Positions 35,457 to 57,705 of a stretch of 64,000 nucleotides of DNA are shown piece after piece. Numbering within the stretch: position 1 is the first letter of the stretch; the number at the start of each line of letters is the position of its first letter. Below the pieces are notes generated by a model, which searched no databases, was not told the DNA's origin, and was given only the letters and a program-made list of their open reading frames with translations. The position numbers were made by a program, and so were the translations under genes. The stretch comes from Anaeromyxobacter sp. (GTDB lineage Bacteria > Myxococcota > Myxococcia > Myxococcales > Anaeromyxobacteraceae): NCBI GenBank assembly GCA_049840735.1, contig JASGJN010000012.1, positions 1-64,000 on the forward strand, in the 5' to 3' direction.

Positions 35457-36702
35457 TCACGGCGGTGCTGGGCACCGCGGGAAGTGGACGCGCGCCACCG
35501 CGCGGTAGGCGCGGTCGGCGGCGTCGTCCAGCCCCTGGCCGAGCGCGCAGACGGTGAGCACGCGCCCCCCGCTCGTCACCACGCGGCCGTCCGGCCCGCC
35601 GGCGGTGCCGGCGTGGAACACCTGCGTGTCGGGCTCGAACGGCCCGGCCAGCCCGTCGATGGCGTCGCCCTTCGCGACGTCGCCCGGGTAGCCGCCGGCC
35701 GCCAGCACCACGCCCACCGCGGCGCGGGGGTCGAAGTCGATGGCCACGCCGGAGAGGTCGCCGCGGGCCGAGGCCACCAGCGCCGGCACCACGTCGCTGG
35801 CCATGCGGAGCAGGATGGGCTGGGTCTCGGGATCGCCCAGCCGCGCGTTGAACTCCAGCACGCGGGGGCCGCGCGGCGTGAGCATCAGGCCGGCGTAGAG
35901 CGCGCCGCGGAAGGGCCGGCCGCGCCGGGCCAGCTCGCGCACGGCCGGGAGCAGCACGTTCCGCTCCACCATGGCCGCCACCTCGGGGGTGACGTTGGGC
36001 GTGGGCGAGAAGGCGCCCATGCCGCCGGTGTTGGGGCCCTGGTCGCCGTCGAAGATGCGCTTGTGATCCTGCGCGGCGGCCAGCAGCCGGACCCGCTCAC
36101 CGTCGGTGAAGCAGATGCAGCTCGCCTCGGGCCCCTCCAGCCGCTCCTCCACCACCACCCGGGCGCCGGCGCCGCCGAAGGCGCGCGCCTCCAGGATGGA
36201 GCGGAGCGCCGCCTCGACCTCGGCCAGGTCCCCGCAGACCACCACGCCCTTGCCGGCGGCCAGGCCGTCGGCCTTGACCACCACCCGCCCGCCCCGCTCG
36301 CGGGCCCAGGCCAGCGCCGGGGCCACCTCGGAGAAGGTGCCGTACTCGGCGGTGGGGATGCCGGCGGCGGCCATGACGTCCTTGGCGAACGCCTTGGAGC
36401 CCTCGAATCTCGGCCGCGGCCGCGGTGGGGCCGAAGGCCAGGATGCCGGCGGCGGTGAGCCGGTCCACCAGGCCCGCCACCAGCGGGGCCTCCGGGCCGA
36501 CCACCACCAGGTCGATGGCGTTCTCCCGGGCCCAGGCGGTCAGGCCGTCCACGTCGTCCGCGCGCAGCGCGACCAGCGTGGCCACCTGCCCGATGCCGGG
36601 GTTGCCGGGGGCAGCGTAGAGGGCGCGGACCAGCGGGCTCCGCGAGATCTTCCAGGCGAGGGCGTGCTCGCGACCGCCCGATCCGACGACGAGGACTCGC
36701 AT
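35457..36702 (-). CDS. purD: Phosphoribosylamine--glycine ligase, frameshift at about 36407 and possibly near the 3' end
   Basis: [35 protein letters not shown]...[18 protein letters not shown]. Confidence 0.95.
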
Positions 36703-52736: not shown

Positions 52737-53162
52737 GTGACCTCCCGGCTCGCCCTCTTCGCCCTCGCCCTCTGCGCGCTCCCTGCGCGCGCCGACGCGC
52801 CGGATGCGCGCGCCGCCACCCTGCAGGCCATGGAGGCCGAGCTGGGCCGCTCCATGGGCCGGCTCAGGCTGGAGGGGTACGACGCCCCCTACTTTGCCTC
52901 CTACCAGGTGGTGGAGACGACCCGGCACGAGCTGGGCGGCCGCTTCGGCGCGCTCTTCACGGACCGCACCCGGCGCAGCCGGACGCTCAGCGTGGACGTG
53001 CGGGTGGGGAGCTACGAGCTCGACTCCTCCGGTCCGGAGGAGAACGCCATCCTCCTGGGCGCCGACGGCCCGAGCTGGTCGGCGCCGCGCGAGGCCCCGC
53101 TGGACGGGGACGTGGCCGCGCTCCGCAACGCGCTCTGGCTGGTGACCGACGAGCAGTACAAG
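52737..53162 (+). pseudogene. TldD/PmbA-family secreted protein, N-terminal part, interrupted by the CRISPR/IS insert
   Basis: Signal peptide, AMEAELGRS...PYFASY...VRVGSYELDS...LRNALWLVTDEQYK, ending exactly where a degenerate CRISPR repeat begins. Confidence 0.8.
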
Positions 53163-53805
53163 CTTCAGGGGCCGCTCCCGAGACAAGCCCCCAGACCGGC
53201 CCACCCAGGGGGCCCTCGTAGGAGCAGAGCCGCGCACAGGCTTCAACGGGGCCGCTCCTCGTGAGGAGCGGAGAGTCCCACCGACGACCCCGTCCCGGGC
53301 TCGTTCGCTTCAACGGGGCCGCTCCTCGTGAGGAGCGGAGAGCCCCACGGCCGCGACCATGCCTTCGCCTCCGTGCGGCTTCAACGGGGCCGCTCCTCGT
53401 GAGGAGCGGAGAGGCCGACGCCAACACAAGACCGCTGAACGTCTCTTCAACGGGGCCGCTCCTCGTGAGGAGCGGAGAGGTCGAGGCCCGCCGCTCCCGT
53501 CGGGCTTCAACGGGGCCGCTCCTCGTGAGGAGCGGAGAGGCTGCAGCCAGATCCAGATGCGGCCGTCACAAGCTTCAACGGGGCCGCTCCTCGTGAGAAC
53601 AGGGGCCGCCCTCGTGAGGAGCGGAGAGCCGGGGATGAGGCCCACAACGAACGCGGCGCTTCACGGGGCCGCTCCTCGTGAGGAGCGGAGAGGGCGCTGA
53701 GAACACCGAGTCGCGAGGCGCAGCTTCAACGGGGCCGCTCCTCGTGAGGAGCGGAGAGCCTCCTGCGCGCGCCCGGCGACGTCTTGCTTCAACGGGGCCG
53801 CTCCT
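53162..53805 (-). CRISPR. CRISPR array segment 1, repeat GCTTCAACGGGGCCGCTCCTCGTGAGGAGCGGAGAG (36 bp, type I-G/I-U-like)
   Basis: Repeats start at 53240, 53307, 53378, 53444, 53504, 53572 (internally duplicated), 53658, 53723, 53786 (truncated); unique spacers 31, 35, 30, 24, 32, 29, 30, 27 nt; degenerate copies at 53162 and about 53207; strand inferred from the TTGAAGC 3' end. Confidence 0.92.
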
Positions 53806-53996
53806 GTGATCGGCCACACCGATCCGTGTGAAGTGCGGCCAGGAGATCGAGCGCCGGAAACTTCGTGAGCCTGCGGCGGGCAGGTACGACGGAGAGGTCA
53901 CGCGTCGAAAGGACGAAGGCCGGGAGCGGCAACTCCCAGCCTTCCGTGTCGAGCGAGGGCGCGTCGACGTACGCAGCCTCGCCCGAGACGAGCGCC

Positions 53997-54350
53997 ATGG
54001 CAAGAAGTCGGCGCGGGCAAGGGCGTGCCCGATCACCGGCTGGCTACATGCGCGCGCTGTCGCGCGTCGTTCTCGCTCTGTCGCGCGTGTGACCGAGGCC
54101 AGGTCTTCTGCGGGCCGGCGTGTCGGGCAGCGGCGCGCTCGAGGTGATCCGCGCGGCGCGGAGGCGTCATCGTCAGAGCGACGAGGGCAGGCTCGACCAC
54201 CGGGATCGGGAGCGTGCGCGGCGCGCTCGGCGGTCAGCCCGCGTGGGGATCTGGGTTCCGAGAAGTTGCCGTCGTCGCCGATGGTCCGCGCGGACGCTGG
54301 CGCGTGCGACTCCACGGTGGAGCCGGGCGTCGCCGCGCCCGAGGTTCATC
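53997..54350 (+). pseudogene. Cys-rich putative Zn-finger accessory ORF, frameshifted; bounds approximate
   Basis: Hand translation TCARCRASFSLCRACDRGQVFCGPAC followed after an indel by RRRHRQSDEGRLDHRDRERARRARR. Confidence 0.55.
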
Positions 54351-54721
54351 ATGAGCGAAACGATCACGGTCACCATCGCCCCCAGCCGGACCGCGTGATC
54401 CTGGCCACGACGGCGACGCACGACGTTCTCAAGGCTGTCCTCGGACCGTCGCGCCGGTCTCATCCGAGAGCGGCGGCGACGTTGCTCGAGGGGCTCGCCC
54501 TCTGGCATCAGCAGCCCCTCTCCGTTGTGCTGTCTGCGGACGCCTCGGACGATGGTACCGCGCTGGGCCTCTGCGACGCGCTCGGGTTTGGACGCTCGCT
54601 CCACTACGAGGTCGCCCTCGCGTACGCGGATCGCTGGCACGGGCGCCGACGACGTGATCGTCGAGGGCTCGGTGACTTCCGCGACCTGCGCCAGCTCTCG
54701 TTCTGGGAGGCGTCGCGATGA
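54351..54721 (+). pseudogene. Accessory hypothetical ORF upstream of istA, frameshifted
   Basis: MSETITVTIAP / DRVILATTATHDVLKAVLGP...HPRAAATLLEGLALWHQQPLSVVL...GLGDFRDLRQL; stop overlaps the istA ATG. Confidence 0.6.
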
Positions 54722-55070
54722 CGGTGAGCATCGCGACCGCCGCGAGATCCGGCGGCTCTACTTCGCCGAGCATTGGAAGCGCGGGACGATTGCCGCCCAG
54801 CTCGGGGTCCACTTCGACACCGTGGCGCGCGTGCTCGGCAGCTTCGGCCCCAAAGCCGGGACGCCAAGGCCCGAGGCTCGCGTTCTCGAGCCGTACGTCG
54901 CGTTCGTCGATGAGACGCTCGCGCGTCACCCGCGTCTCGTATCCACCCGCATCCACGACATGCTCGTCGAGCGCGGCTACAGCGGCAGCCTCCGCACGCT
55001 CCGTCGTACGTTCGCGCCAGTCGGCCAGCGCCGCGCAACGAGGTCTACGTGCGCGTCGAGTCCCTCAGCA
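54718..55070 (+). pseudogene. istA: IS21 transposase IstA, N-terminal fragment
   Basis: EIRRLYFAEHWKRGTIAAQLGVHFDTVARVL...LEPYVAFVDETLARHPRL...RIHDMLVERGYSGSLRTLRR; lost before the DDE core. Confidence 0.8.
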
Positions 55071-55336
55071 GGCGGTGGCTCACGTGAGCTTGTTGCGCGA
55101 TGTGGGCCGAGCTCGTGGTCAAGAGTAGCAGCGCACGAGAAAGGCAAGGTCAGCGCATCCGCATAGCCTCGGCCTCGCTCTCCATAGCTGGGCCACGTCG
55201 TCACACGTCGTCCCACAATTCGTGCGTCCCAGCCTCAGCGTGGCTCACGCACGTCGCGAGGCGAAGGCGTCCCCGCCAGACATCGAGCAGCTCTCACATA
55301 AATATCAAAAGAGTAATAGGGGCAGAGAGAAAAAAA

Positions 55337-55552
55337 CTTCGGGCGCTCCTCGTAGGAGCGGAGACTTGTCGTTGACTTGCTCCGCTCGCAAGCTTCAACG
55401 GGGCCGCTCCTCGTGAGGAGCGGAGAGGACGACGGCGGCATGACGAGGCGCTGCTGCTTCAACGGGGCCGCTCCTCGTGAGGAGCGGAGAGGCCGCGCTC
55501 CCCACCGCGAAGCGAAGAAGCGATGCTTCAACGGGCCGCTCCGTAGGAGAAG
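55337..55552 (-). CRISPR. CRISPR array segment 2, same repeat
   Basis: Perfect repeats 55392-55427 and 55456-55491; degenerate copies at about 55337-55364 and 55525-55552; spacers about 27, 28, 33 nt. Confidence 0.85.
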
Positions 55553-57022
55553 GCGCTCAAAAAGTCCGACTACTTCAAGAAGAAGTCGAAGGGGGTCTAC
55601 CGGCCCGACGCGGCCGACCGCGCCCCGTCCTTCTCCCGCGAGCCGGCCTCGCGCCACGTGGACGCGCCGCTCCCGTTCACCTTCGACGCCGAGGCCTGGC
55701 GCGGGCGGATCCGCGAGGCCACCGCCCGCTTCCGCGATCACCCGGAGATCTTCGACGCCGAGGTGGAGCTGACGGCGGAGCGGCAGGTGCGCTGGTTCAC
55801 CTCCAGCGAGGGCTCGGCCCTGATCACCGAGCAGGCCGTCTACAACATCCACCTCACCGCCGTGACCCGCGCCCCCGACGGCCAGCTGCTGGAGGACGGA
55901 CGCGACTGGTACGCGCCCACCGAGGCCGGCCTGCCCGCGCCGGCGCAGCTGGGCGCGGCGGTGGATCAGGTCATCCAGGAGCTGGTGGCGCTGCGCCAGG
56001 CCCCGGCCATCGACCCGTACACCGGGCCGGCCATCCTCGAGTCCGAGGCCGCCGGCGTCCTCTTCCACGAGGCGCTCGGCCACCGGCTGGAGGGGGAGCG
56101 GATCGACGACGACCAGGACGGGCAGACCTTCCGGGGCCAGGTGGGCCAGCGGATCCTGCCGCCCTTCCTGACGCTGGTGGACGATCCCACCCTGGCCACC
56201 CTCGGCGGCCAGCCGCTGAACGGCTTCTACCGCTTCGACGACCAGGGCGTGCCGGGGCAGCGCACCGTGCTGGTCCGCGACGGGAAGCTCGAGGCCTACC
56301 TGCTCTCGCGCAAGCCGGTGGCGCCGTTCACCCGCTCCAACGGCCACGGCCGCGCGCAGGGCATCCGCCGCCCGGTGTCGCGCATGTCCAACCTGATCCT
56401 CACCTCCACGCGGCAGGTGCCCGCCGCCAGGCTCAAGCAGCAGCTGATGGAGGAGGCGCGCCGGCAGGGCAAGCCCTTCGGGCTCATCATCCGGGACATC
56501 ACCGGCGGTGACACCAACACCGCCTCCTACGGCTACCAGGCCTTCAAGGGGACGCCGCGGCTGGTCTACCGCGTCGACGCGAAGACCGGCGCCGAGCAGC
56601 TGGTGCGCGGCGTGGAGCTGGTCGGGACGCCCCTCTCCAGCGTCAACCGGGTGCTGGCCACCAGCGACCGGGCCCAGGTGTTCAACGGCTACTGCGGCGC
56701 GGAGAGCGGCTACGTGCCGGTCTCGACCGCGGCGCCCGCCGTGCTGGTGCAGGAGCTCGAGCTGCAGCGGGTGGCCCGCGCCAGCGACCGCAGCCCCATC
56801 CTCCCCGCCCCGTGGACCGACCAGGGCGGCGGGTCACGATCTGAACGGGGGCTGCGCCCCCGCCCCGCCAGCAGAGCTGTCGGGGCCCCACCCCTGCTGC
56901 GGCGGAGCCGAGCGCGCCGCGGCCTGTCGGCCTTGCGCGCCATCCGCCGCCGAGGGGCTGCCGCCCCTCCCCTGGCTTTCGCCGGGGCCCCCACCCCGTT
57001 TCGGACCAGCGAGCGACCGTAG
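55553..57022 (+). pseudogene. TldD/PmbA-family protein, C-terminal part; true stop may be near 56844
   Basis: Frame resumes AL..SDYFKKKSKGVYR; GVLFHEALGHRLEG (HExxxH), DDQGVPGQ, SNGHGR, SRMSNL, LVRGVELVGTP, FNGYCGAESG. Confidence 0.85.
56845..56998. repeat. Diverged third copy of the dispersed palindromic element
   Basis: ACGGGGGCTGCGCCCCCGCCCC...GGGGCCCCACCCCTGCTGCG resembles 57530-57586. Confidence 0.55.
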
Positions 57023-57053: not shown

Positions 57054-57530
57054 GTGAGCACGCCCGTCCCCGTCCCGCCCCTCGACGCCCTGCTCGGCCA
57101 GCCGCGCCGGGCCGCCCTCGACGCCTTCGCGCGCGCCGGCTGGCGGCCCTGGGCCACGCCCATCTCGCTCGACGCCGGGCTGCGGCGGCGGCTCAACATC
57201 GATCTCTCCGAGCCCGAGGTGGCGCTGCTGCGCGACGAGGCGCTGGCGGCGGTGGCGCACCTCGAGACCGATCGCGAGGGGCTGGTGACGCACGTCGAGG
57301 TGGTGGGGGCCGACCCGGCCGACCCCGTGGCCATCGCGCTGGCGCTGCTGGGCGAGATCGGCCCGCCCCGCACCGGCGGCAACGCCCAGGCGCGCGAGTG
57401 GGTCTGGGGCCCGGAGTCGGGGGCCGAGGCGCAGGTGGCCGGCGAGCCGGTGCGACTCTGGATCTGCGCCGAGCGGGCCTACGGCGACCGGCTCTGGCTC
57501 ATCGCCAGCCTGGTGCGGCGGGCATCGTAA
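57054..57530 (+). CDS. Hypothetical protein
   Basis: Strong GC3 bias from GTG 57054; its TAA lies within the adjacent repeat element. Confidence 0.6.
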   Translation: MSTPVPVPPLDALLGQPRRAALDAFARAGWRPWATPISLDAGLRRRLNIDLSEPEVALLRDEALAAVAHLETDREGLVTHVEVVGADPADPVAIALALLGEIGPPRTGGNAQAREWVWGPESGAEAQVAGEPVRLWICAERAYGDRLWLIASLVRRAS

Positions 57531-57703
57531 CGGGGACTGCGTCCCCGCCCCAGGAGCAAAGCTCCTGGGGCCCCACCCCTGCTGCGCTGGGTCCCGCCGC
57601 GCTGCGGCCCCAGAATCATCAAGCCAGGGGAAGGGGGCCTTGCGCGGCACCCAGCGAGGAGGGGCGCTGCCCCTCCCCCGCGCTGCGCGCGGGGCCCCAA
57701 CCC
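57527..57703. repeat. Dispersed about 175-bp palindromic element, copy 2 (inverted relative to copy 1)
   Basis: GTAACGGGGACTG...CCCCAGGAGCAAAGCTCCTGGGGCCCCACCCCTGC... is the reverse complement of 16316-16491 with substitutions. Confidence 0.8.
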
Positions 57704-57705
57704 CC

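Follow-up and report, generated by a model that had tools for sequence, protein, structure and literature searches.

A type I-G-like CRISPR array segment with an IS21-family remnant inside a tldD-family gene of Anaeromyxobacter sp. is probably an assembly artefact

Isolated or orphan CRISPR arrays, which lie far from cas genes or occur without them, have been described as carrying insertion sequences (IS) in or near the array and as having moved horizontally (PMC13142298, in its available portion). Errors of long-read assembly have likewise been described, including chimeras, regions drawn from a minority of reads or a single read, and unsupported indels (10.1101/2025.04.22.649783, in its available portion). 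A literature search that covered listings and the beginnings of abstracts, with most subscription papers outside its scope, returned no repeat-bounded array inserted in a gene. The locus presented here has this layout, and its parts are of known kinds, namely a type I-G-class array and an IS21 element.

The window (the whole 64,000-nt stretch of Anaeromyxobacter sp. DNA that was analysed) carries a TldD/PmbA-family gene that is split in two by a 2.39 kb insert at 53163-55549 and is otherwise intact (Table 1). The TldD frame ends at ...LVTDEQYK and picks up again in the right flank, where the C-part matched PF19289 (PmbA/TldD) in a profile search with E 9e-30; scores against the NCBIfam TldD models were below their cut-offs. 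The coordinates and the C-part match confirm the preliminary description in placing the split after ...LVTDEQYK (53162), and its left limit of 53162/53163 stands, but the right end moves to 55549 because codon 55550-55552 belongs to tldD. A TldD match was present in 38 of the 41 genomes searched; across the entire C-part the best congeners showed 68-73% identity, and the host genome has no second close tldD copy. The identity of the 5' part to nine outgroups was 0.53, within the congeners' range of 0.49-0.55, and that of the short C-part tested, a piece that includes stray residues, was 0.39, slightly under the congeners' 0.40-0.46.

Table 1. Features of the interrupted gene and its insert, with positions in the window.
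Feature	Position	Strand	Description and basis
TldD/PmbA-family gene, 5' part	52737..53162	+	open frame of 142 codons with no frameshift; alignment to the N-part of orthologues
Left edge of the array	53162..53239	-	two eroded repeats (about 53162-53187 and 53199-53229) and very short inter-repeat gaps; alignment to the repeat
Array body left of the IS	53240..53805	-	exact repeats at 53240, 53307, 53378, 53504 and 53723
Imperfect units in the array body left of the IS	53444; 53572-53628; 53658		one substitution; partial duplication; one-base loss
Half repeat cut by the IS	53786-53805	-	in the array body left of the IS
IS21-family element, left part	53805..55066	+	left end at 53805, non-coding stretch, accessory ORF, 5' part of istA
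124-aa accessory ORF	54351-54721	+	frameshifted; intact relative at 96%
istA, 5' part	54718-55066	+	two frameshifts; NF033546
Garbled stretch	55067..55336	+	about 230 nt with six islands collinear with later istA, followed by an A-rich scrap
Array right of the IS	55337..55549	-	exact repeats at 55392 and 55456, flanked by eroded ones at 55337-55364 and 55525-55549
TldD/PmbA-family gene, 3' part	55550..56842	+	open, no stop; six stray bases at 55559-55564; PF19289, orthologue alignment

All 27 orthologue loci examined were uninterrupted at the insert site and had identical residue spacing at the junction. The tldD gene fits this spacing exactly if 53163-55549 is taken as the insert and 55559-55564 as extra; these six bases lie 9 nt inside the right flank and are absent from 27 of the 27 loci. 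Aligning the rejoined protein with intact homologues, as had been proposed, restored the spacing with no tldD base missing, and neither a target duplication nor a loss of tldD bases was found at the site relative to the same loci. The first repeat base is common to the last tldD codon before the insert. No intact mobilising enzyme gene was found in the insert, and insert composition is foreign, at the 5th-15th percentile of genome windows. The window also carries, at 56843-56997 and 57524-57704, a dispersed, REP-like element some 150 nt long; it has dozens of copies on most contigs, and these frequently form short tandem series.

The array in the insert consists of 16 repeat-like units (a possible garbled half repeat near 55315 is left out of this count): seven exact, one with a substitution, one cut by the IS and seven with indels. 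Both array ends directly abut tldD, with no leader seen, and alignment to the repeat bears out the earlier claim that degenerate copies of the 36-nt repeat lie at both ends of the insert. The exact copies all fall within 53240-55491, and a search of the rest of the 6.67-Mb host genome, one of the checks suggested at the outset, returned no further exact copy. Spacers in the array body left of the IS measure 24-35 nt, and successive periods of the array are 37, 41, 67, 71, 66, 60, 68, 26, 60, 65, 63, 55, 64 and 69. In seven related arrays all 162 periods were 71-78 (with duplicates removed and gaps of at least 100 ignored), and in a congener's type I-G array all 71 periods were 70-75; only one of the 14 insert periods reaches 71, and the other 13 are shorter than any of the 162. 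The insert array has lost bases throughout. The genome offers an internal control in a native type I-E CRISPR-Cas locus on another contig (C13:463000-474339) with 41 regular 29-nt repeats, none of which has an indel, against 7 of the 16 units in the insert; 37 of the 40 native spacers measure 32 nt. In that native locus cas3 itself is spread across three reading frames, probably as a result of indels made in assembly.

By its length of about 36 nt, its stem and its conserved end, the window repeat appears to belong to the type I-G class, an assignment that is supported by its relatives. The stem is 8 bp long, with a folding z of only -1.78. A loosened repeat pattern retrieved 14 metagenome loci, and the two closest related arrays with flanks (L048 and L042, differing from the window repeat by 5 and 7 mismatches) both adjoin complete type I-G operons, in agreement with the initial view of the repeat as I-G-like; the orientation of the window array (- strand) was likewise taken from related arrays beside I-G operons. 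For cas genes, 60 of 113 candidate ORFs from seven related loci were scanned, and the five other loci gave no cas match among the ORFs scanned. An I-G-like array of eight repeats on an IMG/VR contig (L050/L055:10001-10546) had no cas match among the 11 of 19 ORFs scanned, and another IMG/VR contig carries a single I-G-like repeat near a DnaB gene (L041/L054:4453). Two long arrays of this class, L046 with 81 repeats and L051 with 109, lie beside a ProA/Hhe-like anti-phage helicase gene, again with no cas match among the ORFs scanned.

The preliminary description had also called the array cas-less, a claim that was followed up by whole-genome family searches for cas1, csb1, csb2 and cas4g/1g. 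It held genome-wide for the type I-G genes searched: the host genome, which is 94% complete, gave no match to csb1, csb2 or cas4g/1g, where the Pfam searches for csb1 and csb2 were run without a positive control and a later control search supplied one for csb1 only. Neither csb1 nor csb2, two of the genes singled out beforehand for a search of the rest of the genome, was found. Cas genes of type I-E are nevertheless present on another contig; the only cas1 in the host genome is of this type and goes with an unrelated 29-nt repeat. Among 36 congeners csb1 was found in four, indicating type I-G systems there, one of them with a 36-nt repeat that shares the first 10 bases. The repeat at up to 3 mismatches was absent from 400 other genomes of the phylum and its exact form from the genome-contig and metagenome-contig collections (0 loci), and no donor array was identified in these three sets. 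Spacers gave only chance-level matches, both against phages (E 0.7) and against the host genome, a plasmid search returned only two short istA matches, an Rfam search gave nothing near the gathering score, and no RNA run was found to hold the stretch.

The IS21-family element sits inside the array, where it interrupts one repeat, and it forms neither insert boundary. Its transposase matched NF033546 with E 2e-12 over codons 1-93, short of the cut-off set for the whole protein. Contigs from four runs of four studies cover 53805-55066 at about 97% identity; these sludge contigs reach 3.2 kb in two runs and are shorter in two more, in three runs they start exactly at 53805, and they carry the IS with no CRISPR repeat beside it. 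The insert holds only the left ~1.26 kb and scraps of this ~3.2-kb element. Neither istB nor a recognisable right end was found, with the window's match to related elements stopping in istA, and of the two terminal inverted repeats and target duplication expected of an IS only the left end is clear. The exact left end had no occurrence in the genome-contig collection, and long matches to the IS DNA in 400 genomes of the phylum were only 66-68% identical. A native IS21-family element on another contig (C14:68645-70100) is 68% identical to the insert's IS and has a frameshifted istA itself. The 124-aa ORF lies directly upstream of istA in the IS21 group (L019, L021, L060, L061) and has 606 homologues with no Pfam or NCBIfam name; it appears to define an unnamed accessory gene family. 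Because the sludge runs share the IS and not the flanks, they are uninformative on habitat or on an empty site, and missing cover over the array in these runs is not evidence; the flanks have no long close pieces there, and no sequencing run was found with half of the stretch's words.

Against the short-read sludge contigs, all seven listed indels in the IS are losses in the window. Substitutions numbered 33, of which 27 were listed and six not shown. All 12 coding substitutions tested (54398-55066) fall at third codon positions, and of two further upstream substitutions, assessed by hand, one is third-position and the other a first-position change beside an indel; an IS protein relative (P0001) differs at four residues. 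The IS has 3 frameshifts in 716 coding nt, compared with at most 0.62 per kb in the flank genes, where the 14 sites in 22.6 kb are an upper bound (P about 0.01), an excess that is modest because the flank genes are frameshifted too. Natural divergence of the IS thus appears to have kept the protein while the indels break its frames. Elsewhere in the window, single-base frameshifts at 36406, 46562, 50737, 60610 and 61185 lie in genes that are whole in one or other of two comparison genomes (G006 or G021) and are probably assembly errors.

Beyond 55066, all that is left of about 700 nt of istA is a set of six islands within about 230 nt, arranged in the order of IstA residues 160, 177, 252, 292, 376 and 393 (the relative's residues 160-398). 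This order was reached by 1 of 300 and 4 of 300 shuffles in the chain test, and sludge contigs that join 55151 to 55238 and match 55238-55274 independently support the places of two islands. Single 7-residue matches in the garbled stretch did no better than shuffles; only the island order did. The sequence after 55066 is not one clean deletion.

Flank and insert bases also appeared to be mixed near the right junction. The last spacer opens (55492-55509) with a sequence that agrees with tldD 53115-53132 in 15 of 18 bases, the two lying about equally far from their junctions; the match was spotted after the fact and is the best of 11 spacers, and 4 of 3000 windows taken at random from the genome scored equally well. 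The mirror test, left edge against right flank, gave no match beyond chance (P 0.1-0.3). A single crossover through the 15/18 match was considered and ruled out, since tldD 53133-53162 stays on the left side, and a resemblance to a restriction site at the left junction was likewise discounted, being a product of how the repeat begins and having no counterpart on the right side. The 15/18 copy and the six stray bases are what we would expect if reads with the insert and reads with the empty site had been forced into one consensus. Two expected signs of assembly error, a local excess of indels and mixing of flank and insert bases, were thus found, with the mixing at the left edge not significant.

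The inserted DNA most likely looks like a mangled consensus rather than a decayed element, and we put at roughly 65% the probability that the insert is no real chromosome feature, the assembler having merged foreign or non-representative sequence into an intact tldD. Of the two readings in the preliminary description, mobile unit or chimeric assembly, the latter is the better supported by the repeat indels, the short periods, the losses in the IS and the mixing at the junction. The chromosome of the main population would carry intact tldD, and a long-read assembly would have merged into the contig a fragment of the type I-G array of a different, co-occurring organism or strain, an array that already held an IS21 element in one repeat; the frameshifts in flank genes and the three-frame cas3 suggest that the source assembly was made from long reads. 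Empty-site reads would then have voted for deletion, wearing away both edges and most of the IS unevenly, and consensus steps may have leaked tldD bases into the insert end and insert-like bases into the flank. Repeats would have stayed cleaner than spacers, probably because out-of-register array reads agree on repeats only. Behind the damage pattern, the foreign repeat and the intact gene, which are directly observed, we infer this long-read origin, polishing mechanism and donor. Against the artefact, one chimeric read gives one junction rather than a clean A-B-A' layout with no base loss, both ends fall on repeat edges, the algorithmic route to an A-B-A' layout is hypothetical, and seven exact repeats persist despite short spacers, unlike uniform read error.

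That layout, with tldD complete on both sides, would be explained together with all the signs of erosion if a minority of cells carried a true insertion in tldD that was worn down in assembly by the majority of empty-site reads. The true insert would then probably be longer, with the whole IS, longer spacers and perhaps more DNA, and one or a few reads would have served as backbone. The type I-G systems of congeners, including the repeat with the shared first 10 bases, count in favour of this reading, and the available portion of 10.1101/2025.04.22.649783 describes assemblies in which a contig represents only a minor subpopulation. We nevertheless consider this unlikely: the site shows no target duplication, and the insert no integrase or intact transposase; its composition is foreign, and no second copy was found in the host genome or 400 genomes of the phylum. 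To our knowledge, no mechanism is known by which an internal stretch of an array would be carried into a gene. The specific proposal that an inner segment of a type I-G array, running from repeat edge to repeat edge with the IS21 element as passenger, was bluntly integrated into this housekeeping gene and survives in the contig as a worn-down version is distinctly unlikely; it would have taken place in a cell with no I-G cas genes, and spacer memory would have moved in a unit whose ends are the repeats themselves.

The coincidence of both ends with repeat edges would also follow if a decayed array-plus-IS fragment from another organism had become fixed by illegitimate recombination there. The intact tldD halves would fit a recent knockout, and isolated arrays move between genomes and take IS insertions (PMC13142298, available portion). 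This is very unlikely given decay by deletions only with substitutions at third positions, an istA cut into six islands, the shortening of every spacer, an effect that immunity-related decay does not have in seven related arrays, the flank bases in the last spacer and stray bases in the flank, and the 27 uninterrupted orthologue loci. Highly improbable, and largely refuted by anatomy, is an origin as an IS21-driven mobile unit or as a neo-CRISPR, an array formed on the spot through off-target integration of spacers, a process that can create arrays in E. coli (summarised in 10.1101/148544, as far as available). An IS21 element is indeed present, but the array-plus-IS21 unit first envisaged fails because the IS lies inside the array with no boundary role, istB and the greater part of istA are missing, no target duplication accompanies the element, and in sludge it is found with no flanking repeat. 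As for neo-CRISPR, the repeat is not duplicated tldD sequence and matches I-G arrays elsewhere, and the only host cas1 is type I-E with its unrelated repeat.

If the insert is an artefact, a 94%-complete reference genome (6.67 Mb, 26 contigs, 71-76% GC) holds a false orphan array and a false tldD pseudogene, and the insert's spacers are unfit for host prediction. Such cases can be flagged without reads by a native array control, the period of related arrays, indels set against third-position substitutions, and flank bases in the insert. If instead the insertion is real, CRISPR repeats would have formed the ends of a mobile segment, which would give isolated arrays a testable origin.

Compared with the assembly errors described in 10.1101/2025.04.22.649783, the window is alike in that a conserved locus contains sequence from a foreign or minority source; indels in that study had few or no supporting reads. 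That study used PacBio HiFi read mapping, and no CRISPR-bounded case was seen in its available portion, whereas the window was judged from the assembled sequence alone. The IS shares its left end and the order of accessory ORF and istA with IS21 relatives in four loci of other genomes; unlike the 3.2-kb sludge element, it is frameshifted, has most of istA reduced to scraps, and lacks istB and a recognisable right end. The window array has the same 36-nt repeat ends and 8-bp stem as the two I-G arrays closest to it, but those adjoin cas3g, csb1, csb2, cas4g/1g and csx17 or a Cas3-extension gene, whereas it has no cas genes, and I-G spacers are about 35-42 nt, in contrast to 24-35 nt in a leaderless array inside a gene. 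Finally, the isolated arrays in the available portion of PMC13142298 are, like this one, away from cas genes and associated with IS; they have leaders, regular repeats and neighbourhoods conserved across many genomes, whereas the window array was seen once, lies in a gene and is eroded.
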